In this document: piece after piece, positions 43,327 to 57,247 of the stretch | Position numbering within the stretch: the first letter of the stretch is position 1 | Layout of the letters: each line of letters opens with the position of its first letter | Assembly: GCA_050692915.1 (NCBI GenBank) | Contig: JBOGVU010000004.1 | Coordinates: 1,968-65,967, forward strand | DNA from: Actinomycetota bacterium | GTDB lineage: Bacteria > Actinomycetota > UBA4738 > CALAEC01 | Direction: 5' to 3' | DNA length: 64,000 nt | Translations under genes and position numbers: made by a program | The notes under the pieces: model-generated | Seen by the model: only the letters and a program-made list of their open reading frames with translations | Told to the model about the DNA's origin: nothing | Databases searched by the model: none

Positions 43327-44331
43327 ATGACGGTGAAGGTCGGTATCAACGGCTTCGGAAGAATCGGCCGTAACTTCTTCCGGGCGGCCAAGCGCCAGGG
43401 TGCGGACCTCGACTTCGTGGGGGTGAACGACATCACCGATGCGAGGACCCTGGCTCATCTGCTGAAGTACGACTCGGTGCTTGGGACCCTCGACGCGGAC
43501 GTCGGCGTGAGCGACGAGGGGATCCGGGTGGACGGCGACGAGCTGAAGGTGCTGGCCGAGCGAGACCCGGCCGCGCTCCCGTGGAAGGAGCTGGGCGCGG
43601 AGATCGTCATCGAGTCGACCGGGCTGTTCACGGACCGGGAGAGCGCCCAGAAGCACCTGGAGGCCGGGGCACAGAAGGTGATCGTCAGCGCCCCCGCGAA
43701 GGGTGATGACATCACGATCGTCCTCGGCGTGAACCAGGATGACTACGACCCGGCCACCCATCACGTGATCTCCAACGCTTCCTGCACCACGAACTGCGTG
43801 GTCCCCATGGCCAGCGTCGTCGAGGAGGCCTTCGGCATCGACCGGGCCCTGATGACCACGTGCCACGCGTACACGAACGACCAGAACCTGCTCGACCTGC
43901 CTCACGAGGACCTCCGGCGGGCCCGGGCCGCGGCCATCAACATCGTGCCGGCGAGCACGGGGGCGGCCAAGGCCACCTCTTTGGCCATCCCCAAGCTCAA
44001 GGGGAAGATGGACGGCATGGCATTCCGGGTCCCGGTGCCGGTCGGCTCGGTGACCGACCTGGTGTGCCTCCTGGAGCGGGAGGCCACGGTCGACGAGATC
44101 AACGAGGCGTTCCGGACAGCCGCCGAGGGCCGCCTCCAGGGCATCCTCAAGTACACGGAGGACCCGCTGGTCTCCTCGGACATCGTGGGGGACCCGCACT
44201 CGTGCGTGTTCGACGCGCTCTCCACGATGGCCATCGGGAACATGGTCAAGGTGATCGGCTGGTACGACAACGAGTGGGGCTTCTCGAACCGGCTCGTGGA
44301 GCTGACCGAGCTGGTCGCCTCGAAGCGCTGA
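43327..44331 (+). CDS. gap: glyceraldehyde-3-phosphate dehydrogenase
   Basis: [14 protein letters not shown]-binding motif and ASCTTNC active site. Confidence 0.95.
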
Positions 44332-44333
44332 GC

Positions 44334-45497
44334 GTGGCGCGGCTCCGGACCATCGAGGACCTCGGCGACCTGGCCGGGCGGCGGGTCTTCATGCGGGTCG
44401 ACTTCAACGTCCCGCTGGAGGGCGGCCGGGTGGCCGACGACACACGGATCGCCGCCGCCCTGCCCACGATCCATGAGCTTCGCGACCGGGGGTCACCCCT
44501 GGTCCTGGCCTCGCACCTGGGGCGCCCCGAGGGGAACGTGGTCGGAGAGCTCCGCATGGATCCCGTGGCCCGGCGCCTGGAGGAGATGGGGGGATTCCCG
44601 GTCGGCAAGATGGATGGTTGGATCGCCCGGCCCGGTGAGGGTGAGGTCGTCCTCCTGGAGAACCTGCGGTTCGACCCCGGCGAGGAGACCAACGACCCCA
44701 GGTTCGCCCGGGAGCTGGCCTCGCTGGCCGACGCGTACGTGGACGATGCGTTCGGCGCCGCACATCGGGCCCACGCCTCGGTGGTCGGGGTGGCCCGGCT
44801 TCTGCACGGTGTCGCGGGGCGCCTCATGCAGAAGGAGGTGGAGGTCCTGTCCCTGCTCGTGGAGGGTCCGGAGGAGCCGTTCGTGGCCATCCTCGGCGGG
44901 GTCAAGGTGTCCGACAAGCTCGGTGTGATCGACGCATTGCTGGATCGGGTGGACGCGCTGCTGGTGGGCGGGGCCATGGCGTTCACGTTCCTGGCCGCCC
45001 AGGGCGCCGAAACGGGCGACTCCCCGATCGAGGAGGATCAGCTGGACACGGTTCGGGCCGCGCTGGCCAAGGCCGAGAAGCGAGGGGTGGTGATCGTACT
45101 CCCCGAGGACATGGTGGCCGCGCCGGAGGCCTCGCCCGAGGCCCGGAAGGAGACGGTGCCCGCCGATCGCATCCCTCGAGGGCTGAAGGGGCTCGACGTG
45201 GGGCCGCGGACCGTCGAGGAGTTCACCCGGGTCCTGGCCGACGCCAGAACGATCTTCTGGAACGGGCCCATGGGCGTGTTCGAGCTGGAGCCGTTCGCGC
45301 TGGGGACGCGCGGCGTGGCTCAGGCCGTGGCGGCGGCGAACGCGTTCACGGTGGTCGGCGGGGGCGACAGCGTGGCGGCGATCCGGAAGCTCGGCTTCGA
45401 GGACTCGGTCGATCACCTGTCCACGGGCGGGGGAGCGTCGCTGGAGTTCCTGGAGGGGAGGACCCTTCCCGGCGTGGCCGTGTTGATGGAGGGCTGA
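44334..45497 (+). CDS. pgk: phosphoglycerate kinase
   Basis: GTG start 2 nt after the gap stop. The listed ORF 43860..45497 is a merged frame. PGK motifs RVDFNVP and GGGASLE. Confidence 0.9.
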
Positions 45498-46262
<765 letters not shown>

Positions 46263-46264
46263 CC

Positions 46265-47533
46265 ATGGCCCCACCGAAGCTCCTGTACGCGTGCCTGGAT
46301 GGACTTGGGGACGAGCCCGATCCCATCCTGGGCAACCGGACGCCGCTGGAGGCCGCGGCCACGCCGTTCCTGGACGACCTGGCCGCCCGGGGCCGCGTCG
46401 GCCTGGTGCACACCGTGGGCCCCGACATCGCCCCGGAGTCCGACATCGCCGTGTTCGCCATCCTCGGCTACGACCCCGCCGAGCAGCATCCCGGTCGGGG
46501 AGTCCTGGAAGCGCTGGGGTCGGGGATGGAGTTCCGGGACGACGACCTGGCGCACCGGGTGAACTTCGCCACCGGGGAGGACGGCCACATCGTGGACCGT
46601 CGGGTCGGCCGGGACCTGTCCAGCGAGGAGGCCCGGGCCCTGGCCGACGAGGTCAACGGCCGGCTGGAGCTCCCCGCGGCGACGTTCGAGCTGCGCCCCA
46701 CGGTGGAGCACCGGGGCGCCCTGGTGATCCGGTCCACCGAGGGCCCGCTGTCGGCCGAGGTCTCCAACACCGACCCGGCGTACGCGAAGGTGGGGAGCCT
46801 CGGGGTGGCCCTGGAGACGTTCGAGGATGAGGTGGCCTGGGCCGAGCCGCTGGACGCCTCGGAGGAGGCCCGCCGGGCCGCCGACCTCACGAACGCGTTC
46901 GTCAGGGAGTCGGCCCGGATCCTGGATGCATCGGAGACGAACGCCCGGCGCCGGCGGGACGGCCGGCTCCCGGCTAACCTGATCCTGACGCGGGACGCCG
47001 GCGACCACCTCCCTCGGCTGACCCCGATCCGGGAGCGGTTCGGCCCGTCGTGGGGGTGCTTCGTGGAGATGCCGGTGGAGCGGGGGATCGCCATGGCCCT
47101 GGGGATGGGGGAAGTTCCGGCGCCCTCGCCGCCCGACCCGGAGGAGCGGTACGCGGCCTGGGCGGCGGTGGCGGTCGAAGCCTTGGGTGGGTACGACGCC
47201 CTGTACGTCCACATCAAGGGACCCGACATCCCGGCCCACGACGGCCGGGCCGAGGACAAGCGGGACGTCATCGAGGTGATCGACCGAGCCTTCTTCGGCC
47301 AGGTCCTCCCGGCCATCGACCCCGGCGGCGTGATCCTGGCCGTGACCGCCGACCACGCCACATCGTGCCTCCGCAAGGCCCACACCGCCGATCCGGTCCC
47401 CTTACTCGTATGCGGGCCGGGGGTCCAGGCGGACGGGGTCACGGCCTTCGGCGAGCGGTCCGCCGCCGACGGCTCCATCGGCACGATCCGTGGCGTCGAC
47501 ATCCTCCCGCGCCTGGTGTCCCTCCTCCGCTAG
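46265..47533 (+). CDS. apgM: 2,3-bisphosphoglycerate-independent phosphoglycerate mutase, archaeal type (ApgM)
   Basis: ATG 2 nt after the tpiA stop. CLDGLGD N-terminus, TADHATS motif near the C-terminus, alkaline-phosphatase-superfamily metal site. Confidence 0.8.
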   Translation: MAPPKLLYACLDGLGDEPDPILGNRTPLEAAATPFLDDLAARGRVGLVHTVGPDIAPESDIAVFAILGYDPAEQHPGRGVLEALGSGMEFRDDDLAHRVNFATGEDGHIVDRRVGRDLSSEEARALADEVNGRLELPAATFELRPTVEHRGALVIRSTEGPLSAEVSNTDPAYAKVGSLGVALETFEDEVAWAEPLDASEEARRAADLTNAFVRESARILDASETNARRRRDGRLPANLILTRDAGDHLPRLTPIRERFGPSWGCFVEMPVERGIAMALGMGEVPAPSPPDPEERYAAWAAVAVEALGGYDALYVHIKGPDIPAHDGRAEDKRDVIEVIDRAFFGQVLPAIDPGGVILAVTADHATSCLRKAHTADPVPLLVCGPGVQADGVTAFGERSAADGSIGTIRGVDILPRLVSLLR

Positions 47534-47624
47534 CCCCCTAGGCCGGTCAGACCGGATAAGGGCTCGAAACCCCGCTCGGGGGGGGGCAATCCGGCGGAGG
47601 GGGTGGTGGCGTATTACTGCGAGA

Positions 47625-47651
47625 GGACCCAGCGTTGCTTGGGCTGGGTCC
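47625..47651 (+). terminator. 9-bp perfect hairpin GGACCCAGC-(9)-GCTGGGTCC after apgM, overlapping a TTGCTT-17-TAGTAT promoter-like element
   Basis: Perfect inverted repeat. Candidate -35/-10 at 47635-40 and 47658-63. Confidence 0.4.
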
Positions 47652-47694
47652 AGACACTAGTATCTGCTGGTCCTGGACCTGAGGGGGCGCACGA

Positions 47695-48687
47695 GTGGCG
47701 CAGGTCGCCAGCGAGCCGGTCGCGGCCGAACCGATCGGCCCGGAGTTCGGCGGAGAGCCGAGCAAGCAGGTCGTCGGCCGGAGCCCGGGCCAGCTCTTCT
47801 GGCGCCGGTTCCGGCGAGACAAGTTTGCCGTGGCCGGGGTCGTGTTCATCGCGTTGATGATCGTGCTCGCCACCGTGGGGGCCCCCCTCCTGTCCGGCGT
47901 GGTGGGCCACGAGCAGAACGAGGTGTTCGTGTCCGAGGCCCTGAGCGAGATCGGGCTCCCGATCGGCCCGACCGGCGAGTTCTGGTTCGGGGCCGACACG
48001 GCCGGGCGGGACCTGTTCGTTCGGGTGCTCTACGGGGCCAGAACCTCGCTGACGGTGGCCGTGGTGGCCACCGGCATCGCGCTGGTCATCGGCGTGACCC
48101 TGGGCCTGATCGCCGGCTTCTACCGGGGCAAGGTCGATACCTTCGTCTCCCGGCTGATCGACATCGTCCTGTCCCTGCCGATCCTCCTGCTGGCCCTGGG
48201 CCTGGTGGCGGCGTGCAGCCTCAGCCGGACCGGCTGCCTCGGGGGGCTGATCCGGCCGGGCGTGCTCCTGGTCAGCTACGTGATCGGGCTGTTCTCCTGG
48301 CCGTACATCGCCCGGATCGTCCGCGGCCAGGTCCTGTCCCTGCGGGAGAAGGAGTTCATCGAGGCCGCCCGGGCGCAGGGCGCCGGAGACGCCCGGATCA
48401 TCTTCCGGGAGATCCTGCCGAACGTGACCGCCCCGATCATCGTGTACACGACCCTGATCATCCCGGCGAACATCCTGTTCGAGGCGGCCCTGTCGTTCCT
48501 GGGCATCGGGGTGAAGCCGGGGACCGCGTCATGGGGGAAGATGCTCGCCGACGCAGGAACCGGGATCTTCACCGTGGCCTGGTGGATGATGCTGTTCCCC
48601 GGCCTGTTCCTGTTCCTGACCACCCTGGCCTTCAACCTGGTCGGCGACGGTCTGCGGGACGCGCTCGACCCACGCACGGCTCGGTGA
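47695..48687 (+). CDS. dppC: peptide ABC transporter permease DppC/OppC family
   Basis: GTG start. C-type permease N-terminus (WRRFRRDKFA) and EAA-loop region. Confidence 0.85.
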   Translation: MAQVASEPVAAEPIGPEFGGEPSKQVVGRSPGQLFWRRFRRDKFAVAGVVFIALMIVLATVGAPLLSGVVGHEQNEVFVSEALSEIGLPIGPTGEFWFGADTAGRDLFVRVLYGARTSLTVAVVATGIALVIGVTLGLIAGFYRGKVDTFVSRLIDIVLSLPILLLALGLVAACSLSRTGCLGGLIRPGVLLVSYVIGLFSWPYIARIVRGQVLSLREKEFIEAARAQGAGDARIIFREILPNVTAPIIVYTTLIIPANILFEAALSFLGIGVKPGTASWGKMLADAGTGIFTVAWWMMLFPGLFLFLTTLAFNLVGDGLRDALDPRTAR

Positions 48688-48761
48688 AGCGATGACCGGC
48701 GAGAGAGAGGAGACGGCCTGGAGCACTCGGTGGTACTCGGGTACGTGAGAGAGGGGATGAC

Positions 48762-50591
48762 GTGAAGCGATATACGAGACTGATCGCCCTCGCCGGGGTG
48801 CTGGCCCTCGCGGCCGCCGCCTGCGGCGAGGAGGCGGCGCCGCCCGCAGCCGAGGGCGAAGAGGCCCAGCGGGGCGGAACGCTCCTGGCCGGCCTGGAGT
48901 CGGACGTCGATGACGCTTTCGACCCCCAGAAGGAGTACTACTCGGTCACGTGGGGCTTCTACCACTGTTGCCTCCTGCGGACGCTGATCACGACGCCGCT
49001 CACTACGGCCGAGAACGGAGGGGATGAGCCACAGCCGGACCTGGCCACGGATCTGCCGGAGGTCTCGGAGGACGGGCTCACCTACACCTTCACTATCCGG
49101 GACGGGGTGACCTTCGCCCCCCCGTATCAGGACACGGAGATCACGGCCCAGTCCTTCATCAACGCCATGGAGCGGGAGGCCACCCCGGCGGTCGGCGCCG
49201 GGTACCCGTTCTACTACTCGGTGATCGAGGGGTTCGACGAGTTCTCCGAAGGTGAGGCCGACACCATCTCCGGGATGACCGCGGTCGACGACAAGACCCT
49301 GGAGATCACCCTGAGCCGGCCGGCCGGGGACTTCCCGCTCCGGATGATGATGGCGGCGACAGCGCCGATCCCCGATGGGGCCGCCGACGGGCACGACAAG
49401 GACTACGGGCGGTTCCTGATCTCCTCGGGCCCGTACATGTTCGAGGGGGCGGACGAGGCCACGGCGCCGCCGGCCGAGCCCTTCCCCGGCTACGAGCCCG
49501 GGCGGTCGATCGTCCTGGTTCGGAACCCGTCATGGAGCGCCGACACGGACCCCCTCCGGGAGGCGTACCTCGACCGGATGGAGATCCAGATCGGGCTGAC
49601 GACCGACGACGGCGCCCTTCGGGTCGACAGCGGCGAGATGCATCTCATGCTCGACGCGATTCCGCCGGCCCAGCAGATCCAGGCGTACCAGGGGGATCCG
49701 GAGCGCCAGGACCAGCTGTTCTCCTTCACCGGCGACGGCACGTACTACGTGTCGATGAACGTGGCCGAGCCTCCATTCGACGACGTCAACGTCCGTCGGG
49801 CCGTGAACTTCGCCCTCGACCGGGCCGGCCTGCTCCAGATCCGGGGCGGACCGCTGTTCGGTGAGGTGGCGAACCACGCCATCACGGATCCGTTGACGAA
49901 CTTCCTGAACGCGGACTACGATCCGTATCCATCGCCGGACGGTTCCGGCGATATCGCCGCGGCGCAGGAGGAGATGGCCCAGTCCGCGTACGACTCGGAT
50001 GGGGATGGCGTCTGTGACGACCCGGTGTGCGAGAACGTCGTCTCGGTCACCGACGAGGCCGACCCATACCCCGACCAGTCGGCGCTGATCAGCCAGAACC
50101 TCGAGCCGCTGGGGCTCACCTTGGACGTCACGACGCAGGAGCGCACCACGATGTACGACAGCTGCAACGACCCCGGTGCGCACGTGGCGCTGTGCCTGGG
50201 CCCCGGGTGGTCCAAGGACTACTCGGACGCCACCACGTTCGGCGAGGCGCTGTTCGGATCGGCGGCCGTCGGTCCGGACTCGTGCTGCAACTACGCCCTG
50301 GTGGGGGCCCCTTCGGACGTCCTGGAGGAGCACGGCTACGAGGTCACCGAGGTCCCCAGCGTCGACGCCGATTTCCTGGCGTGCGACGAGATGGAGCTCG
50401 GGGACGAACGGCTCCAGTGCTGGGCCGACTTCGACCGGAAGATCACCGAAGAGGTCGTGCCGTGGGTTCCGATCAGCTTCTTCCGCGACGCGTTCATCGT
50501 GAGTGACGCGGTCCGGAACTTCGACTACGACCAGTTCTCGGGTCAGCCCGATCTCGCTGGCTTGTCGCTCGCGGGCGGAGGCTCCGCCTAG
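48762..50591 (+). CDS. peptide/oligopeptide ABC substrate-binding lipoprotein (SBP family 5)
   Basis: Lipobox LAAAAC. SBP_bac_5-like sequence. Confidence 0.8.
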   Translation: MKRYTRLIALAGVLALAAAACGEEAAPPAAEGEEAQRGGTLLAGLESDVDDAFDPQKEYYSVTWGFYHCCLLRTLITTPLTTAENGGDEPQPDLATDLPEVSEDGLTYTFTIRDGVTFAPPYQDTEITAQSFINAMEREATPAVGAGYPFYYSVIEGFDEFSEGEADTISGMTAVDDKTLEITLSRPAGDFPLRMMMAATAPIPDGAADGHDKDYGRFLISSGPYMFEGADEATAPPAEPFPGYEPGRSIVLVRNPSWSADTDPLREAYLDRMEIQIGLTTDDGALRVDSGEMHLMLDAIPPAQQIQAYQGDPERQDQLFSFTGDGTYYVSMNVAEPPFDDVNVRRAVNFALDRAGLLQIRGGPLFGEVANHAITDPLTNFLNADYDPYPSPDGSGDIAAAQEEMAQSAYDSDGDGVCDDPVCENVVSVTDEADPYPDQSALISQNLEPLGLTLDVTTQERTTMYDSCNDPGAHVALCLGPGWSKDYSDATTFGEALFGSAAVGPDSCCNYALVGAPSDVLEEHGYEVTEVPSVDADFLACDEMELGDERLQCWADFDRKITEEVVPWVPISFFRDAFIVSDAVRNFDYDQFSGQPDLAGLSLAGGGSA

Positions 50592-50601
50592 GAACGACGG
50601 G

Positions 50602-50644
50602 CGAGGGGATGAGTGGGGGTCCGTCGGGGCCCCCACTCCCCTCG
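50602..50644 (+). terminator. bulged GC hairpin (intra-operon attenuator candidate) between the SBP gene and dppB
   Basis: CGAGGGGATGAGTGGGGG … CCCCCACTCCCCTCG. Confidence 0.35.
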
Positions 50645-50665
50645 TGGGGGATAATCGGGGGCGAC

Positions 50666-51637
50666 ATGGGACGGTACCTGATCCGGCGGACGCTGTTCCT
50701 GGCCTTGGTGCTGGTGACCGTGTCCTTCCTGACGTTCCTGATCTTCTACAAGCTTCCGCCGGGCGACCCGGCGCGGAGGGCCGCGGGCCGGCGGACCAGC
50801 CCGGACATCATCCAGCAGGCCCGAGAGAACCTCGGGCTGGACAGGCCCTGGTACGTGCAGTACGGCCGGTTCGCCAAGGGCCTGGTCCCGTGGCCGGGGT
50901 TCTTCCTGAACGAGCAGGTGTACTTCTCCTACAACAACTTCGTCCCGGTCAAAGAGCAGCTCTACCAACGGCTCCCCGTCACCGCCGTGATGGCGGTCGG
51001 CGCCTCGGTGGTGTGGGTCCTCATCGGGCTCCCGATCGGGATCATGTCGGCGATCAAACCGAGGTCGACCCGGGACCGGGCCGGGATGCTCTTTGCGCTC
51101 TTCGGCGTGTCCGCCCCGGTGTTCTGGCTCGGCTACGTGATGCTGTACGTGTTCTGGTTCAAGCTGAGCTGGTTCCCGGGGAGCACCCTGCCCATCGACG
51201 AGACGCTCTGGGAGTCCGTGCTCCGGGGCCGCTTCGTCCTGCCCTGGATCACGCTCTCGTTGACCTTCGCCGCCTTCTACGCTCGGATGACCCGCTCCAA
51301 CCTGATCGAGACCATGAGCGAGGACTACATCCGGACGGCTCGCGCCAAGGGACTGTCGGAGCGTCGGGTGATCTTCAAGCACGGCCTCCGCGCGGCGCTG
51401 ACTCCCGTGGTGACGATGTTCGGGCTCGACCTGGGGATCCTGCTCGGTGGGGCCGTCATCACCGAGCAGGTGTTCAACCTCCCCGGCATTGGCCACTACG
51501 TCATCGACGCGCTGACCACGAACGACTTCCCCGCGGTGATGGGGGTCACCGTGTTCGCGGCGCTCTTCATCATCGTGGCGAACCTCCTGGTCGACGTGGC
51601 CTACGCATTCCTCGACCCGCGGGTGAGGTACGGGTAG
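50666..51637 (+). CDS. dppB: peptide ABC transporter permease DppB/OppB family
   Basis: ATG 50666 gives MGRYLIRRTLFLALV, a B-type permease N-terminus. Confidence 0.85.
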   Translation: MGRYLIRRTLFLALVLVTVSFLTFLIFYKLPPGDPARRAAGRRTSPDIIQQARENLGLDRPWYVQYGRFAKGLVPWPGFFLNEQVYFSYNNFVPVKEQLYQRLPVTAVMAVGASVVWVLIGLPIGIMSAIKPRSTRDRAGMLFALFGVSAPVFWLGYVMLYVFWFKLSWFPGSTLPIDETLWESVLRGRFVLPWITLSLTFAAFYARMTRSNLIETMSEDYIRTARAKGLSERRVIFKHGLRAALTPVVTMFGLDLGILLGGAVITEQVFNLPGIGHYVIDALTTNDFPAVMGVTVFAALFIIVANLLVDVAYAFLDPRVRYG

Positions 51638-52650
51638 TGGGGGAGCCGCTCCTGGAAGTGCGGGATCTGACCGTCCATTTCCCGACCGACGACGGCCTGG
51701 TGAAGGCCGTTGACGGCGTGTCGTTCTCGGTCGACCGGGGGGAGACCCTCGGCGTGGTGGGGGAGTCGGGCTCCGGCAAGACCGTGACGTTCCTTACGGT
51801 GATGGGGCTGATCAGCCGGAAGTCGGCCCACGTGAGCGGCGAGGTCATCTTTCAGGGCCAGAACCTGCTCGAGCTGCCGGACGAGGACATGCAGGACATC
51901 CGGGGGTCCCGGATCAGCATGATCTTCCAGGATCCCATGACCTCGCTCCACCCCTACTACCGGGTGGGGGAGCAGATCGTGGAGGCCATCCGCACCCACC
52001 AGGACATCTCGAAGCGCGATGCCCGGAAGCAGGCCGTGGAGATGCTCCGCCGGGTAGGCATCCCTCGCCCCGACGAGAGGGTCCGCCAGTACCCGCATGA
52101 GTTCTCGGGCGGGATGCGCCAGCGGGCCATGATCGCAATGGCTCTGTCCCTGAACCCCGATCTCCTCATCGCGGACGAGCCGACCACGGCGCTCGATGTG
52201 ACCGTCCAAGCACAGATCCTCGACCTGATCGGCCGGCTGAAGGACGAGTTCGATGCATCGGTCGTGATCATCACGCACGACCTCGGCGTGGTGGCCGAGC
52301 ACGCCGACCACGTCCAGGTGATGTACGCGGGGAGGATCGCCGAGTCCGGGCGACGTAACGACATCTACTACGGCGCGCGCCACCCGTACACGTGGGGCCT
52401 CCTGCAGTCGATCACCAGACTCGATCAGCCCAGGCAGGAGCGGCTCCGCCCGATCCGGGGCCTCCCGCCGTCGTTGATCTTCGTGCCGTCCGGGTGCCCG
52501 TTCCACCCGCGGTGTCCTTACGTCATGGACGTGTGCAAGACCGAGGTGCCACCGCTCCTCAGTGAGGACGGAAAGCATGCCTCGGCCTGTCACCTTCCGC
52601 TGGCCGAGAAGGAGCGGATCTTCAACGAGGACGTGGCGGTGAAGACGTGA
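51637..52650 (+). CDS. dppD: peptide ABC transporter ATP-binding protein DppD/OppD
   Basis: GTG overlaps the dppB TAG (TAGTG). Walker A GESGSGKT, signature FSGGMRQR, C-terminal oligopeptide-transporter domain. Confidence 0.9.
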
Positions 52651-53900
52651 GCGTCACTGCACGCCGGCCCGGCCCCGGCTCCGACGGAGAGCCACTGGTC
52701 CGGTTGCGCGGGGTGAAGAAGTACTTCCCGATCACCCGGGGCATCATCCTCCAGCGCAAGGTCGGTCAGGTCCATGCCGTCGACGGGATCGACCTCGAGA
52801 TCCCCGCGGGCGAGACCTTCGGGCTCGTGGGGGAGACGGGCTGTGGGAAATCCACCACGGCCCGCCTGGTCACGCGTCTGCTCGACGCGACCGAGGGGTC
52901 GATCGAGTACGACGGCAAGGACATCACACGCCTGAGCCGCCGGAGGATGCGGCCCCTCCGACGGGAGATCGCCATGATCTTCCAGGACCCGTACGCCTCG
53001 CTGAACCCGCGGAAGACGGTGGGCTCGATCATCGGGGAGCCGTTCCAGATCCACGGCCTGGCCGGACGGACCGGGATGGGCAGCCCCTGGGCCTCCCCGG
53101 CCGCCCGGCTGGTGGGGCCCCTGATCGCGCTGGCGGCCCTCGTGATCGCGGTGGTGGCGGGGTTCTCCGCATCGATCGAGGTCCCCCTGGCGCTCCCGTT
53201 CGGGCTGCTGGGCCTGGCGATCCTGGTGGAGGTGCTTCGCCGGCTCCTGGCCCTCCCGGCCCGGCGGAGGTGGAACCGGGAGGTCCGGACGGAGGTCCAG
53301 CGGCTGATGGAGCTCGTCGGCCTCAACCCCGAGCACTACAACCGGTTCCCCCACGAGTTCTCGGGCGGCCAGCGCCAGCGGATCGGGGTGGCCCGGGCCC
53401 TGGCGCTCCGGCCTCGCCTCATCGTCTGCGACGAGCCGGTGTCCGCGCTCGACGTCTCGATCCAGGCCCAGATCCTGAACCTGCTGGAGGATCTGCAGGA
53501 GGAGTTCCACCTGACCTACCTGTTCATCGCCCACGACCTGTCGGTGGTGAAGCACATGAGCGACCAGGTGGCGGTGATGTATCTGGGTCGGATCGTGGAG
53601 ATCGCGCCGGGGGAGACGCTCTATGTGAACCCCAAGCACCCCTACACCGGCGCCCTGTTGTCCGCGGTCCCCATCCCCGATCCCGAGCTCGCCGCCCAGC
53701 GGCACCGCATCATCCTGGAGGGCGATGTGCCCTCGCCGATCGACCCCCCCTCCGGTTGTCGGTTCCATCCCAGGTGCCCGAGGGCGCAATTCCCGGTGTG
53801 CAAGGAGGACGACCCGAGGCTCACGCCGCACCACCGGGGCCAGCTCGCCGCGTGCCACTTCCCTCTAGAGGACCGGGCCGTGATAGAGTCCACGGCCTGA
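52647..53900 (+). CDS. dppF: peptide ABC transporter ATP-binding protein DppF/OppF with ~70-aa hydrophobic in-frame insertion
   Basis: Walker [10 protein letters not shown], signature FSGGQRQRI. Extra segment …[72 protein letters not shown]… (nt ~53061-53276) sits between the Q-loop and the signature. Confidence 0.85.
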
Positions 53901-53926
53901 AGGCCCAAGTTCGGAAGGGATCCACC

Positions 53927-54151
53927 ATGCTGATCGCCACCGTCATCGTGCTCCAGGTGATCTCCGCCATCCTGATGGTGCTGTTCATCCTGCTCCACGC
54001 GGGACGAGGCGGGGGCCTGTCCGACATGTTCGGCGGAGGGTCCGGTCTGGCCGGCGGCACCGCGGTCGAGCGGAACCTCGACCGGGTCACCGTGGCCACG
54101 GCCGTCGTCTTCGCGGTGACCACGTTCTACCTCGCCTGGAAGTGGGTGTAG
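53927..54151 (+). CDS. secG: preprotein translocase subunit SecG
   Basis: 74 aa, two TM segments, glycine-rich loop HAGRGGGLSDMFGGGSG. Confidence 0.8.
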   Translation: MLIATVIVLQVISAILMVLFILLHAGRGGGLSDMFGGGSGLAGGTAVERNLDRVTVATAVVFAVTTFYLAWKWV

Positions 54152-55746
54152 GGGCCCAGGGGCCCCGATCCCTGCTCGTCCTCCTGGTCGCCGTGGCGCT
54201 CCTGGCGGCCGGCTGCACAACCCCTCCCGGGCCTGAGGAGGGCCCGGTGGCGGGTCCCTCGGTGGGAGCCACGCCTCGGACCTCGCTCCGCCTGGCCACC
54301 TCCCTCCCCACGAGCCTGGACCCGCGCGAGCTGAACTCGGCCGACGGGCTCCAGCTGGCCGCCCAGCTGTTCGATGGGCTGGTGGGCTACGACCCCACCA
54401 CGCACGAAGCGATCCCGGGGGCGGCGGAGCGGTGGGACGTCGAGGAAGGAGGGAGCCGGTTCGTCTTCCACCTCCGTCAAGGGATGACCTTCCACGACGG
54501 CAGCCCGGTACGGGCCCAGGACTTCGTGTTCGCCTGGAACCGGCTGGCCGACCCTCTGGCGGCCGCGCCGTACGCGTTCCTGCTCGAGTCGGTCGAAGGG
54601 TTCGATCGATACCAGCAGCAGATCCGGGTGACCAGGCTATCGGGGGCGGTGGCCCGGGACGACCGCACCCTGGAGGTGACGCTCGTCCGCCCCTGGCGCG
54701 ATTTCGTCTCGCTCCTGGGCCATCCGGCGCTGTCTCCCGTCCCGCCGGGCGCCGGCGGGGGGTCCTTCGCGTCCCAGCCGGTCGGGAACGGGCCCTACCG
54801 TCTGGCCGCCCCCATCTCGCCGGGAACCCCGCTGCTCCTGCTGCGCTTCGACGGCTATTTCGGGACCCTCCCTCTCGTCCCGACCCTCGAGTATCGAACC
54901 TTCGACGTGGCCTCGGATGCCTGGCCGGAGTTCCTTGCCGCCGAGCTGGACGTGGCCCCCATACCGCCGGCGCTCCTGGCCGAGGCCGAGAGCAGCTACG
55001 GGGACCACGGCATCACCGAGCTGGCCCAGCTCCTGTACTGCGGCTTCGACCAGGAGGACCCTCGCTTCGCCGATCCGGCCCTGCGGCGGGCGGTCTCCCT
55101 GGCCATGGGCCGGGACGTCGTGGCGGCCGACGTGTACGGCGGCGCCGCCATCCCGGCCACTGGGATCATCCCCCCCTCGCTGCCCGGCTACCGACCGGAC
55201 ACCTGCGGGGGCCGGTGCCTGCGCGACCTGGAGGCCGCCCGAGCCCAGGCCGCCGAGGTGCCTCGAGCCAGCCGAACCTTCTCCCTCGACTACCCCGCGT
55301 CGCCCCTGGCCGACCAGCTCGCCCGGACCCTAGTGGCGCAGCTCGGGGAGGCCGGGCTCATGGTGACGCCCCGGGCCCGAAACCCGATCCGGTTCCAGGA
55401 CGTGCTGGAGGACGGGGGACAGGACCTGTTCTGCCTGGTGTGGACGGCGGACTATCCCCGGCCCCAGGCCCTCCTGGAGCCCCTGGTCGAATCGGGGTCG
55501 GCCGACAATCACTCAAACGTCTCCGACCGGGACCTCGATGTCCTGCTGGAGCGAGGGCGGGCCGAGGCGAACGCCGAGATCCGGACCGAGGTCTACGCCG
55601 AGGCCGAGCGCCTGGTCCTGGAGCGGATGCACGTGATCCCCGTGGTCTGGTTCCGCTCCCACCTGGCGGTCCGCCCCGGCGTGGAGGGGTTCGTGGTCGA
55701 CCCGCTGGGCCGGTACGATGCCGCCACGCTCCGGCTCGGCGCGTAG
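54142..55746 (+). CDS. orphan SBP family 5 lipoprotein
   Basis: Lipobox LLAAGC. SBP_bac_5-like sequence. Confidence 0.7.
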   Translation: MGVGAQGPRSLLVLLVAVALLAAGCTTPPGPEEGPVAGPSVGATPRTSLRLATSLPTSLDPRELNSADGLQLAAQLFDGLVGYDPTTHEAIPGAAERWDVEEGGSRFVFHLRQGMTFHDGSPVRAQDFVFAWNRLADPLAAAPYAFLLESVEGFDRYQQQIRVTRLSGAVARDDRTLEVTLVRPWRDFVSLLGHPALSPVPPGAGGGSFASQPVGNGPYRLAAPISPGTPLLLLRFDGYFGTLPLVPTLEYRTFDVASDAWPEFLAAELDVAPIPPALLAEAESSYGDHGITELAQLLYCGFDQEDPRFADPALRRAVSLAMGRDVVAADVYGGAAIPATGIIPPSLPGYRPDTCGGRCLRDLEAARAQAAEVPRASRTFSLDYPASPLADQLARTLVAQLGEAGLMVTPRARNPIRFQDVLEDGGQDLFCLVWTADYPRPQALLEPLVESGSADNHSNVSDRDLDVLLERGRAEANAEIRTEVYAEAERLVLERMHVIPVVWFRSHLAVRPGVEGFVVDPLGRYDAATLRLGA

Positions 55747-57247
55747 TCGCCGGCTCAGGGCCGCGCTCCTGGCGGTCCTCGCTCTGCTCGCGGCGTGTCC
55801 GGCCGACGAGCTCGAGCCACCCCCCGATCGTCGCTCCCCGGCGGGGACCGTCCGGGTGGGCTACCCGGAAGAGCCCCCGACCCTGAACCCGGCCACAGAC
55901 CCCTCCCCGGCGTCCCGGGACCTCCTGCGCCCGTTGCTGCCCTCGTTCTTCCGGATCACCCCGGATCTCCGGTACGAGCCGTCCCTGCTCGCCGCGGAGC
56001 CCGAGGTGGCGCCGGCGGGGGACCGGACCGAGATCAGGTTCCGGATCCGCGAGGACGCCGCGTGGAGCGGCGGGACCCCGGTGACCGTCCAGGACGTGGC
56101 GTTCACCTGGCGGGTGATGACGGACCCCGGCGTGGACGCGTGGAACCCCACCGGGTTCGACCGGCTGGTGGACGTGGTGTCGGACGACCCCAAGGCCGGC
56201 CGGCTGGTGCTCGACGGCCGATGGCCGGGGTGGCGGGATCTGTTCGCCGCCGGTCGGTTCGTGCTCCCCGCGCACGTCGGTGAGCCGGGATCGGTGGCCG
56301 GGTGGGACGAGGGGCCGCCGGTGACGGCCGGGCCCTACCGGCTCGACGGCTGGACCCGGGGACACTCGATCGTCATGGTCGCCGACCCCACCCACTGGGG
56401 TCCCCGGTCCGCCGTTGAACGGCTCGAGGTGCAGTTCGTGCCGGATCCCACCACGGCCCTCCAGCTCCTGGAGCGCGGGGAGCTGGACGTGGTGGCCCCG
56501 ATGGCCGGAGTGTCGTGGGGCCGGCGCCTGGCAGAGATCGCCGGCGGCGGGACCTCCAGCGCCACCGGCCCGGACGTGGTGTCCCTGGCGATGAACGCCG
56601 AGTCGGTGAGCGACGCGGACCTACGGCGACGCATCGCCCACGCCATCGACCGGAGCCGTTTCCTCGAGGTGGCCCTGCGCGATGACGCCGAGCCGGCCCA
56701 CGGGCTCCTGGTCCCCGAGCAGGAAGGGGCCGAGCCCGCCTGGGCCCGGTACGGCAACGAGCCCGCCCCCGGCGCCGCTGCGCCCGAGGAGCTAGAGATC
56801 GTGTACCCGAGGGGGGAGCTGCCGGACCTGGTGACGCGGTACGTCCAGGCTGAGCTGGAGCGGGCGGCCATCGACGTGGACCTGGTGCCCCTGGAGGCGG
56901 ACGTGCTCCAGGGGACCTTCTTGCCCTCCCGCCGCTTCGACCTGGCCCTGGTGGAGGTGCGCACCGGCCCCTCGCCCGAGCTGTGGCGATGGGTGGAGGT
57001 GCCGGGGGCGGGGACGTCCCTGACCGGCCTCGCCGACGAGGTGCTCGCGGAGATGGTCCGACGGGCCACGGAGGGATCGGCCCCGGCCCTCCGCGAGGCC
57101 CAGGCGCGGCTGGCCGAACTGGCGGTCGCCGTTCCCCTGTACCGGCCCCGGCTCACCGTCGGGTGGCGGGCCGGCATCGCCGGTCCCGCGGCCAACCCCA
57201 CCGTGGAGGGCCCACTGTGGAACGTGGAGGCCTGGTCCGCGGCCTGA
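55718..57247 (+). CDS. orphan SBP family 5-like lipoprotein
   Basis: Signal peptide with lipobox LLAAC. SBP_bac_5-like sequence. Confidence 0.65.
   Translation: MPPRSGSARSRRLRAALLAVLALLAACPADELEPPPDRRSPAGTVRVGYPEEPPTLNPATDPSPASRDLLRPLLPSFFRITPDLRYEPSLLAAEPEVAPAGDRTEIRFRIREDAAWSGGTPVTVQDVAFTWRVMTDPGVDAWNPTGFDRLVDVVSDDPKAGRLVLDGRWPGWRDLFAAGRFVLPAHVGEPGSVAGWDEGPPVTAGPYRLDGWTRGHSIVMVADPTHWGPRSAVERLEVQFVPDPTTALQLLERGELDVVAPMAGVSWGRRLAEIAGGGTSSATGPDVVSLAMNAESVSDADLRRRIAHAIDRSRFLEVALRDDAEPAHGLLVPEQEGAEPAWARYGNEPAPGAAAPEELEIVYPRGELPDLVTRYVQAELERAAIDVDLVPLEADVLQGTFLPSRRFDLALVEVRTGPSPELWRWVEVPGAGTSLTGLADEVLAEMVRRATEGSAPALREAQARLAELAVAVPLYRPRLTVGWRAGIAGPAANPTVEGPLWNVEAWSAA

Follow-up and report, generated by a model that had tools for sequence, protein, structure and literature searches.

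A dppF/oppF-type importer ATPase from Actinomycetota with a predicted membrane hairpin inside its ATPase domain

What are two strongly hydrophobic segments doing inside the ATPase of a peptide-type importer? The question is raised by a dppF/oppF-type gene (52647..53900, + strand; 417 aa; Pfam ABC_tran and oligo_HPY) in the 64,000-nucleotide stretch of Actinomycetota DNA that we analysed, contig JBOGVU010000004.1 positions 1,968 to 65,967, hereafter the window. ATP-binding cassette (ABC) ATPase domains are textbook soluble motors, which touch their membrane partners only via a coupling helix. A first-pass annotation of the window had described, at 53061-53276, an in-frame hydrophobic insertion of about 70 residues between the Q-loop and the ABC signature of this protein (here DppF); its coordinates and description are correct, the interval encoding exactly the 72 residues that it named, with a net addition of 69 aa. 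Our analysis finds that the insert is a real feature, far outside the norm of its family, and that selection acts on its hydrophobicity. Its sequence carries the signature of a transmembrane hairpin with both ends in the cytoplasm (N-in/C-in), and we think it probable that this hairpin serves DppF as an accessory membrane tether and assembly element.

A hydrophobic insert within an intact ATPase

The insert occupies residues 139-211, between the helix that follows the Q-loop and the helix that precedes the signature motif. From FQDP to SGGQ, window DppF spans 126 residues against 57 in insert-less relatives, hence the net gain. The best solved-structure matches of the protein are OppF, DppF and Rv1281c; alignments to all of these solved chains end at residues 137-141 and restart at residue 212, with just 2 residues of Rv1281c in the gap, and NCBIfam models match the protein as two stretches that are split at the insert. 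The ATPase itself is complete. Walker A (GETGCGKS, aa 62-69), Q-loop (FQDP, aa 112-115), signature (FSGGQRQR, aa 238-245), Walker B (LIVCDEP, aa 258-264), D-loop (SALD, aa 266-269) and H-loop (IAHDL, aa 294-298) are all intact and in the correct order, and the ABC_tran match is strong (PF00005, E=5e-31, aa 46-265). The C-terminal oligo_HPY domain (PF08352, E=2e-16) follows, and C371, C377, C385 and C403 align with the [4Fe-4S]-binding C293, C299, C306 and C323 of E. coli DppF; the annotated intactness of the motifs on both sides of the insert thus holds for every catalytic motif, and all four iron-sulphur cysteines are present too.

By Kyte-Doolittle mean over 19 residues, the insert has two peaks, of 2.41 and 2.02, while no other part of DppF exceeds 0.66. 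In 156 Dpp/Opp-type ATPase units from 79 species-representative loci, the maximum hydropathy of a protein has a median of 1.27 and a 95th percentile of 1.64, so that window DppF, with two strongly hydrophobic segments, does not look like a soluble peripheral subunit. The two helices that the first-pass annotation had called membrane-like are borne out by these peaks and by an AlphaFold2 model (from a 47-sequence alignment), which places helices at residues 151-173 and 182-223 (predicted local distance difference test score, pLDDT, 81-93); the second of these is predicted to run unbroken from the second hydrophobic segment into the ATPase domain's own helix, 212-223.

Read from its N-terminal side (all on the + strand), the region begins with the Q-loop and the helical subdomain's first helix (aa 113-138, 52983..53060), which contain N120 and E131. 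The insert then opens with a Gly/Pro-rich linker that ends in Arg (aa 139-154, 53061..53108; pLDDT about 72) and, judging by its Lys+Arg content, would be cytoplasmic. The first hydrophobic helix, TM1 (aa 155-173, 53109..53165), contains the 2.41 peak, lies in the model helix of pLDDT 89-91 and is uncharged in all homologues. A turn, SASIEVPL (aa 174-181, 53166..53189), non-helical in the model and putatively outside the cell, carries the conserved acidic E178 and Pro180. The second hydrophobic helix, TM2 (aa 182-197, 53190..53237), contains the 2.02 peak and an LLGLA-like core common to subgroups, lies in the model helix of pLDDT 88-93, and is joined to the ATPase-domain helix by a connector (aa 198-211, 53238..53279) that is basic and so, by its Lys+Arg content, probably cytoplasmic; this connector holds a P-A-R-R-x-W/F-N motif that is common to the subgroups with FQDP-to-SGGQ spacings of 118 to 126.

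Membrane helices generally obey the positive-inside rule, with Lys and Arg enriched on their cytoplasmic sides. Across 23 diverse homologues, Lys+Arg per residue is 0.18 in the N-terminal flank of the hairpin, 0.02 in the turn and 0.31 in the C-terminal flank, and Asp+Glu peaks in the turn, at 0.13. The turn is 1-16 aa long across homologues, leaving no extracellular domain. Nearly all homologues have two uncharged stretches of 15-30 aa, and their insert segments reach hydropathy means of 2.0-3.2 over 17-19 residues; long uncharged stretches with such means are typical of bilayer-spanning helices. The hydrophobic segments of internal insertions are always even in number, either 2 or 4. Identity between the inserts of different subgroups is only 23-39%, though they can still be aligned and have a layout in common: G-[ILV]-P-G, a basic linker, about 20 uncharged residues, a short turn with Pro and Asp/Glu, about 20 further uncharged residues, and P-A-R-R-x-W/F-N. 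The pattern of two hydrophobic helices, a short turn and positive-inside charges is thus the one expected of an N-in/C-in hairpin anchor, and we take the insert, from its sequence and the model, to be a candidate for one that enters the bilayer.

The substitutions tell a similar story. Of the 49 distinct replacements seen in the two hydrophobic cores within the window's subgroup, just 2 bring in a charged or polar residue (D/E/K/R/H/N/Q), both at the edge of the turn, whereas random single-base changes would be expected to do so in 23.6% of cases (p=2.4e-4). Among six orthologous DNA sequences the ratio of nonsynonymous to synonymous substitution rates (dN/dS) is 0.27-0.64 for the insert and 0.04-0.12 for the rest of DppF, with similar synonymous rates (dS) in the two (0.2-0.9 and 0.3-0.7 respectively). 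The insert is therefore free to vary in much of its sequence while its hydrophobicity is kept by selection.

Recurrence and origin of the membrane segments

Is the insert peculiar to one assembly, or foreign to the gene? Window DppF is NCBI MGH2655361.1 (from a metagenome-assembled genome, MAG, of Actinomycetota), and three other contigs contribute members to its cluster. Our census took the best 120 protein clusters (at 90% identity) of one homologue search, and in 47 of these an insertion is found at this site, with two hydrophobic segments in 44 and four in 3; these clusters come from independent NCBI, JGI, ENA and Logan assemblies. The ortholog alignment that the first-pass annotation had proposed therefore finds the insert at the same site in diverged orthologues. 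Gene order (pgk-tpiA-apgM-dppC-SBP-dppB-dppD-dppF-secG-SBP-SBP, where SBP is a substrate-binding protein gene) is identical in the loci of five diverged variants, which makes these positional orthologues. The loci compared are the 80 that were kept from a contig scan, so that the rarity of the insert outside its clade is indicative rather than exhaustive: among the 156 ATPase units of the 79 species-representative loci listed, the sole such insert is that of an orthologue (L001). The same annotation had named, as grounds for refuting it, that the insert be common to an already described subfamily; it is common to a subfamily, but an insert-bearing DppF subfamily is one for which we found no published description, the fold, the motifs and the operon type being already known.

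The other proposal of the first-pass annotation, that foreign DNA had been inserted in frame, does not survive, and we consider an artefact or recent foreign DNA in any form (misassembly, mobile element, intein-like insertion or frameshifted stretch) to be hardly credible. Two observations might be held to favour it. Two copies of a 9-nt sequence, CCGGACGGA, bracket the insert as an exact direct repeat (53062-53070 and 53285-53293), and the GC content of the insert is above that of its flanks, 0.77 against 0.69. The repeat, however, has a spacing of 223 nt, which is not a multiple of 3, and is probably due to chance in a region of 77% GC; the higher GC follows from the Ala, Gly, Leu, Val, Pro and Arg codons of the insert. 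Set against these are the presence of the same insert in many independent assemblies and diverged orthologues, a dS equal to that of the flanks, and a codon-position GC pattern that is in frame: GC at third codon positions is 0.96 in the insert and 0.92-0.93 in the flanks, whereas translation in any of the other five frames runs into stop codons or yields Arg/Pro/Gly-rich sequence. Blastn and tblastn of the insert against the window revealed no second copy, only chance matches of up to 16 nt, and tblastn found no similarity to SecG, DppB or DppC of the window. From this recurrence and orthology, the equal dS, the in-frame third-position GC and the lack of a second copy we reject misassembly, a mobile element and recent foreign DNA; on the sequence evidence the insert is real, old and translated.

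More specific sources were considered as well. A mobile element or duplication was rejected for want of a second copy, for the out-of-frame repeat spacing, and because the inverted repeats near the insert are weak and typical of DNA of 70-77% GC. Inteins are about 130 aa or more in length and have conserved residues at their splice junctions; an intein or other self-splicing element was rejected, as the insert has 69-72 aa, begins with Ala-Gly, ends with Trp-Asn-Arg, lacks such boundary residues and is inherited with its operon. The insert has no Pfam match. An exhaustive hidden Markov model search of 1.84 billion representatives with a profile of the hairpin yielded no donor: its matches were one member of the family and two unrelated small membrane proteins (E about 9e-4).

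The hairpin of the window (H2) is one of several layouts. Sister variants whose ATPase core is 73-87% identical, with operon and neighbourhood in common, carry other additions, all of them hydrophobic. In H4 (P0039, P0047 at L085:8001-9506, and P0069) about 149 aa, including four hydrophobic segments, are inserted at the same site. A group of 484-aa proteins (P0034 at L084:8001-9455, P0038, P0043, P0046, P0064, P0110, P0033 and P0031) has, alongside H2, a second hairpin of about 67 aa (S2) between DITG and the strand before the Q-loop; for P0034, AlphaFold2 predicts four confident long helices (107-130, 135-173, 219-240 and 248-290). In P0029 a further site, after LLDVTQ, carries an additional hairpin. 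N-terminal extensions also occur, of about 150 aa with four hydrophobic segments (N4: P0060, P0068 at L086:1642-3150, P0091, P0092 and P0113) or about 78 aa with two (N2: P0088); of the proteins with such extensions, P0035 alone carries the internal hairpin too, together with a four-segment N-terminal module (N4+H2). The gene of P0068 overlaps dppD by the usual 4 nt at its start, which means that its extension is not a start-codon artefact. Between positions, the H2, S2, H4 and N4 modules reach hhalign probabilities of at most 14%, and we treat them as independent or diverged beyond recognition. Homology is seen in two cases: between the N4 modules of P0035 and of the P0060 group (hhalign 95%), and between N2 and the final two helices of N4 (E about 1e-5 to 1e-6). 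Where window DppF has its insert, the insert-less orthologue P0066 has the loop TVPKPKIKN.

In a neighbour-joining tree of the adjacent DppD, one clade (100% bootstrap) unites all operons whose DppF has membrane segments with one insert-less operon, L003; the layouts within it are H2, H2+S2, H4, four N-terminal transmembrane segments, or none. The window's subgroup has 98% bootstrap, and H2 (L087) is sister to H4 (L085) with 89%. The placement of L003 in neighbour-joining trees has 43% against 28% bootstrap, and the insert-less orthologues of the same synteny, L014, L017, L042, L054 and L061, fall outside the clade. Any order of gains and losses read from such trees is provisional; the occurrence of N4+H2, then of N4 alone, and of neither makes these modules look like interchangeable anchors.

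Other insertions in the ATPase domain are met with elsewhere. In two MAGs of Methanomassiliicoccales, an Opp/Dpp-type ATPase (L077:6107-7633 and L078:6119-7645) has about 105 aa inserted at the same loop, in this case hydrophilic and zinc-ribbon-like (CxxC...CxxC), which suggests that the loop from Q-loop to signature is a general hot spot for insertions. In addition, the stretch from Walker A to Q-loop is longer by 33-81 residues in 4 of the 156 units, with none of the additions strongly hydrophobic; the distances between these two motifs are 88, 95, 132 and 136 in the four, where 50-60 is usual.

A putative membrane tether and its alternatives

Where would such a hairpin lie in the assembled transporter? 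In E. coli DppBCDF, DppC is the permease that pairs with DppF, and DppF N113 and E124 bond to DppC S196, N210 and N214, which adjoin the DppC coupling helix; in the course of the transport cycle the helical subdomain rotates by some 20 degrees (PMC12136057). E. coli N113 and E124 align with N120 and E131 of window DppF, and the insert, starting at residues 139-141, lies 8-10 residues past E131, the equivalent of the DppC-contacting Glu. The hairpin would therefore leave the domain one to two helical turns beyond this contact, on the side facing the membrane, and it would have to follow or accommodate the helical subdomain's rotation. Lys106 of MalK, at an equivalent position, can reportedly be cross-linked to the EAA loops, although we have not used this as evidence.

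We infer from these results that the insert may work as follows. Two membrane-spanning helices, with both ends in the cytoplasm and a very short acidic turn outside the cell, would interrupt the loop that joins the first and second helices of the DppF helical subdomain, on the side where the ATPase docks onto the DppC coupling helix. The hairpin could then rise straight into the bilayer beside DppC, with TM2 carrying on as one long helix into the ATPase domain. Such a permanent tether, with its extra contact to the membrane domain, would keep DppF at the membrane and could favour or stabilise its assembly with its own DppBC permeases. Its role would be accessory rather than catalytic, given that the anchors look interchangeable and that insert-less orthologues are abundant. 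A short, acidic turn free of Lys and Arg is what is expected of hairpins that are inserted by a YidC-type route with the membrane potential, and insertion of the DppF hairpin might likewise proceed by this route, with the potential acting on the acidic turn. The lineage-specific membrane-anchoring insert which the first-pass annotation had offered as one of its two readings agrees with the conservation of the insert in positional orthologues, with its positive-inside helices and with its membrane-facing site; the pattern of layouts, moreover, fits an anchor that can be exchanged and does not depend on its position.

Several observations weigh against a tethering role. The 352-aa orthologues that lack the insert are the most numerous group and close relatives (82-87% identical in the flanks), from which it follows that the hairpin is dispensable for transport, and the insert-less L003 belongs to the same operon clade. 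A dN/dS of about 0.45 within the insert means weak constraint on its sequence. Only 16 uncharged residues of TM2 precede a conserved Glu/Asp (position 195) in the window's subgroup. The path by which the hairpin would exit the domain is read from a mapping of sequence onto the published interface. Lastly there is nothing obvious to compensate: in insert-bearing operons DppB (323-342 aa) and DppC (328-346 aa) have normal domains, and their blast matches in insert-less loci cover a similar span. That the hairpin makes up for a shortened permease was accordingly rejected as an explanation, DppB and DppC being of normal length.

These points could be turned into another explanation: that the hairpin does enter the membrane but is a tolerated passenger without a role, harmless in a loop that faces the bilayer and persisting there by drift, with selection acting only against changes that would make it toxic. 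The relaxed dN/dS, the abundance of closely related insert-less orthologues and the near loss of sequence resemblance between subgroups would all suit a passenger, as would the permissiveness of the loop to non-hydrophobic insertions, seen in L077 and L078. What makes us regard this as unlikely is that membrane segments were gained at no fewer than four positions of a single orthologue (at least the N-terminus, after LLDxT, after DITG, and the helical-subdomain site), as modules in which no homology is detected between positions, within one clade, against 1 of 156 ATPase units elsewhere. Drift alone hardly accounts for the repeated gain of non-homologous hydrophobic modules in one clade, and P0035 with N4+H2 beside the P0060 group with N4 only resembles the replacement of one anchor by another. 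The same exchange of anchors bears on a more ambitious role, in which the hairpin would be an active coupling or regulatory element, passing the motion of the ATPase domain to DppC, sensing the state of the lipids or membrane, or recruiting a membrane partner that gates ATPase activity. The predicted continuous helix 182-223, the subdomain rotation reported for DppBCDF (PMC12136057), the closeness of the insert site to the DppC-contacting residues and the conservation of the LLGLA-like and P-A-R-R-x-W-N motifs across subgroups all speak for such an element. If anchors at the N-terminus or in other loops can substitute for the hairpin, as they appear to do, its role is not tied to an exact position; a turn of 1-16 aa also offers no extracellular domain, and no extra conserved partner gene specific to insert-bearing operons was found in the loci compared. 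We therefore hold active coupling or regulation to be quite doubtful.

It is very improbable, in our judgement, that the hairpin stays out of the membrane altogether, as a soluble helical arm packed against DppF, against DppD or against cytoplasmic portions of the permeases, for instance for dimerisation or docking. AlphaFold2 shows helices and not their environment, and the shortness of TM2 in the window's subgroup would be easier to understand in a soluble arm; but hydropathy means of 2.0-3.2 over uncharged stretches of 15-30 aa, in a protein that otherwise does not exceed 0.66, argue for the bilayer, and a soluble arm offers no rationale for the positive-inside pattern or for the even number of segments. 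Beyond the tether that we favour, one could speculate that DppF has turned into an integral membrane protein, that the hairpin is a covalent second coupling element on DppC which moves with the helical subdomain, and that the several layouts are independent solutions to one demand. We think this unlikely as a whole; if it were true, the layouts would be a stepwise natural record of importer ATPases acquiring membrane domains.

A motor domain with membrane helices inside it would require membrane insertion to occur co-translationally in the midst of a cytoplasmic domain. The interruption would also change how the domain assembles with the permeases, and possibly the route by which ATP-driven motion reaches the membrane domain. 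One orthologous gene with membrane segments at at least four positions and in three sizes, or with none, makes a comparative series for the study of ATPase tethering, and its layouts bear on the origin of fused ABC architectures. There is a consequence for annotation as well: public entries for the insert-bearing proteins read plainly 'ABC transporter ATP-binding protein', and such entries can conceal integral membrane proteins.

Operon context and known systems

The dppF gene closes an operon of the expected kind, all of it on the + strand. A dppC-type permease gene (47695..48687; OppC_N and BPD_transp_1), whose product is the expected membrane partner of DppF, is followed by the gene for a family-5 substrate-binding protein with a lipoprotein-like N-terminus, ...LAAAAC (48762..50591; SBP_bac_5), a dppB-type permease gene (50609..51637; BPD_transp_1_N and BPD_transp_1) and a dppD/oppD-type ATPase gene (51637..52650), the 337-aa product of which has no insert and is matched by Pfam and NCBIfam in a single unbroken stretch. 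The GTG start of dppD at 51637 overlaps the dppB stop, and the GTG start of dppF overlaps the dppD stop by 4 nt. A DppD paralogue, two BPD_transp_1 permeases and a family-5 binding protein thus adjoin dppF, as in operons of the OppF/DppF branch. Window DppF nevertheless scores below the curated NCBIfam cut-offs for OppF (NF011659, 389 against 540), the dipeptide ATPase subfamily (NF008453, 387.7 against 408) and DppF (NF043071, 333 against 660). By its motifs, iron-sulphur domain and operon the protein belongs to the ABC ATPase superfamily and its Opp/Dpp branch and is OppF/DppF-like; the scores fall short of assigning it a substrate or an exact orthologue among the E. coli proteins.

Directly downstream of dppF lies secG (53927..54151, + strand, 74 aa), whose orthologous position is annotated as PF03840 SecG in L081-L090; the dppF stop and secG start abut or overlap in several relatives and are separated by 26 nt in the window. 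The dpp operon is in fact wedged into a conserved glycolytic and secretion cluster, gap-pgk-tpiA-apgM...secG (43327-54151). Between tpiA and dppC, the gene at 46262-47530 passes the cut-off for apgM (TIGR00306, 369 bits against 320), although its top match is the phosphonoformyl-transferase model PhpG (419 bits), under that model's own cut-off of 545. Two more family-5 binding-protein genes come after secG (54142-55746 and 55718-57247, overlapping by 29 nt) and are kept at the same position in orthologous loci, which suggests that three binding proteins may serve one translocator. In two related MAG contigs an IS110-family transposase gene stands just downstream of the binding-protein genes (L081:12991-14238 and L082:11902-13149); the window has no IS110 transposase gene at the corresponding place.

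How does DppF of the window compare with systems that are already known? Canonical OppF and DppF (E. coli DppBCDF 8z1v and OppBCDF 8z21; M. tuberculosis OppABCD 8j5q and DppABCD 8wd9) share its fold and motifs, its oligo_HPY domain with four [4Fe-4S] cysteines and its operon logic. The solved members, however, are soluble peripheral subunits with 2-10 residues and no hydrophobic helices at the loop where window DppF has 69 more. No PDB chain with the hairpin emerged from alignments to the solved chains or from a PDB fold search, and literature searches returned no description of membrane helices inside, or fused to, the ATPase of an importer.

Membrane helices and an ABC ATPase domain are also combined in one polypeptide in the ABC half-transporters (type IV exporters, ABCG and MacB). 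The membrane domain of a half-transporter has at least 4-6 helices, forms the translocation pathway and is attached at an end of the ATPase domain. Window DppF differs in having only two helices, which interrupt the ATPase domain itself, and in being encoded beside separate and complete DppB and DppC; it is thus not a half-transporter. The regulatory insertion of CFTR NBD1 is likewise a lineage-specific segment in a surface loop of an intact ATPase domain. That insertion is hydrophilic, disordered and regulatory and lies in the beta-subdomain, whereas the insert of DppF is hydrophobic and helical and lies in the helical subdomain.

The closest analogy is with the P-type ATPases, in which the actuator domain is split by the M1-M2 hairpin and membrane helices continue into a soluble domain, as TM2 is predicted to do in DppF. 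In those pumps the M1-M2 hairpin is a rigid mechanical link and an essential and universal part; their fold and family are unrelated to those of DppF, so that the likeness is one of analogy only. The nearest comparison in descent is with the sister variants of the same orthologue (P0034, P0047, P0068, P0035, P0088 and P0029), in which the position and number of the membrane helices differ around a common ATPase core.

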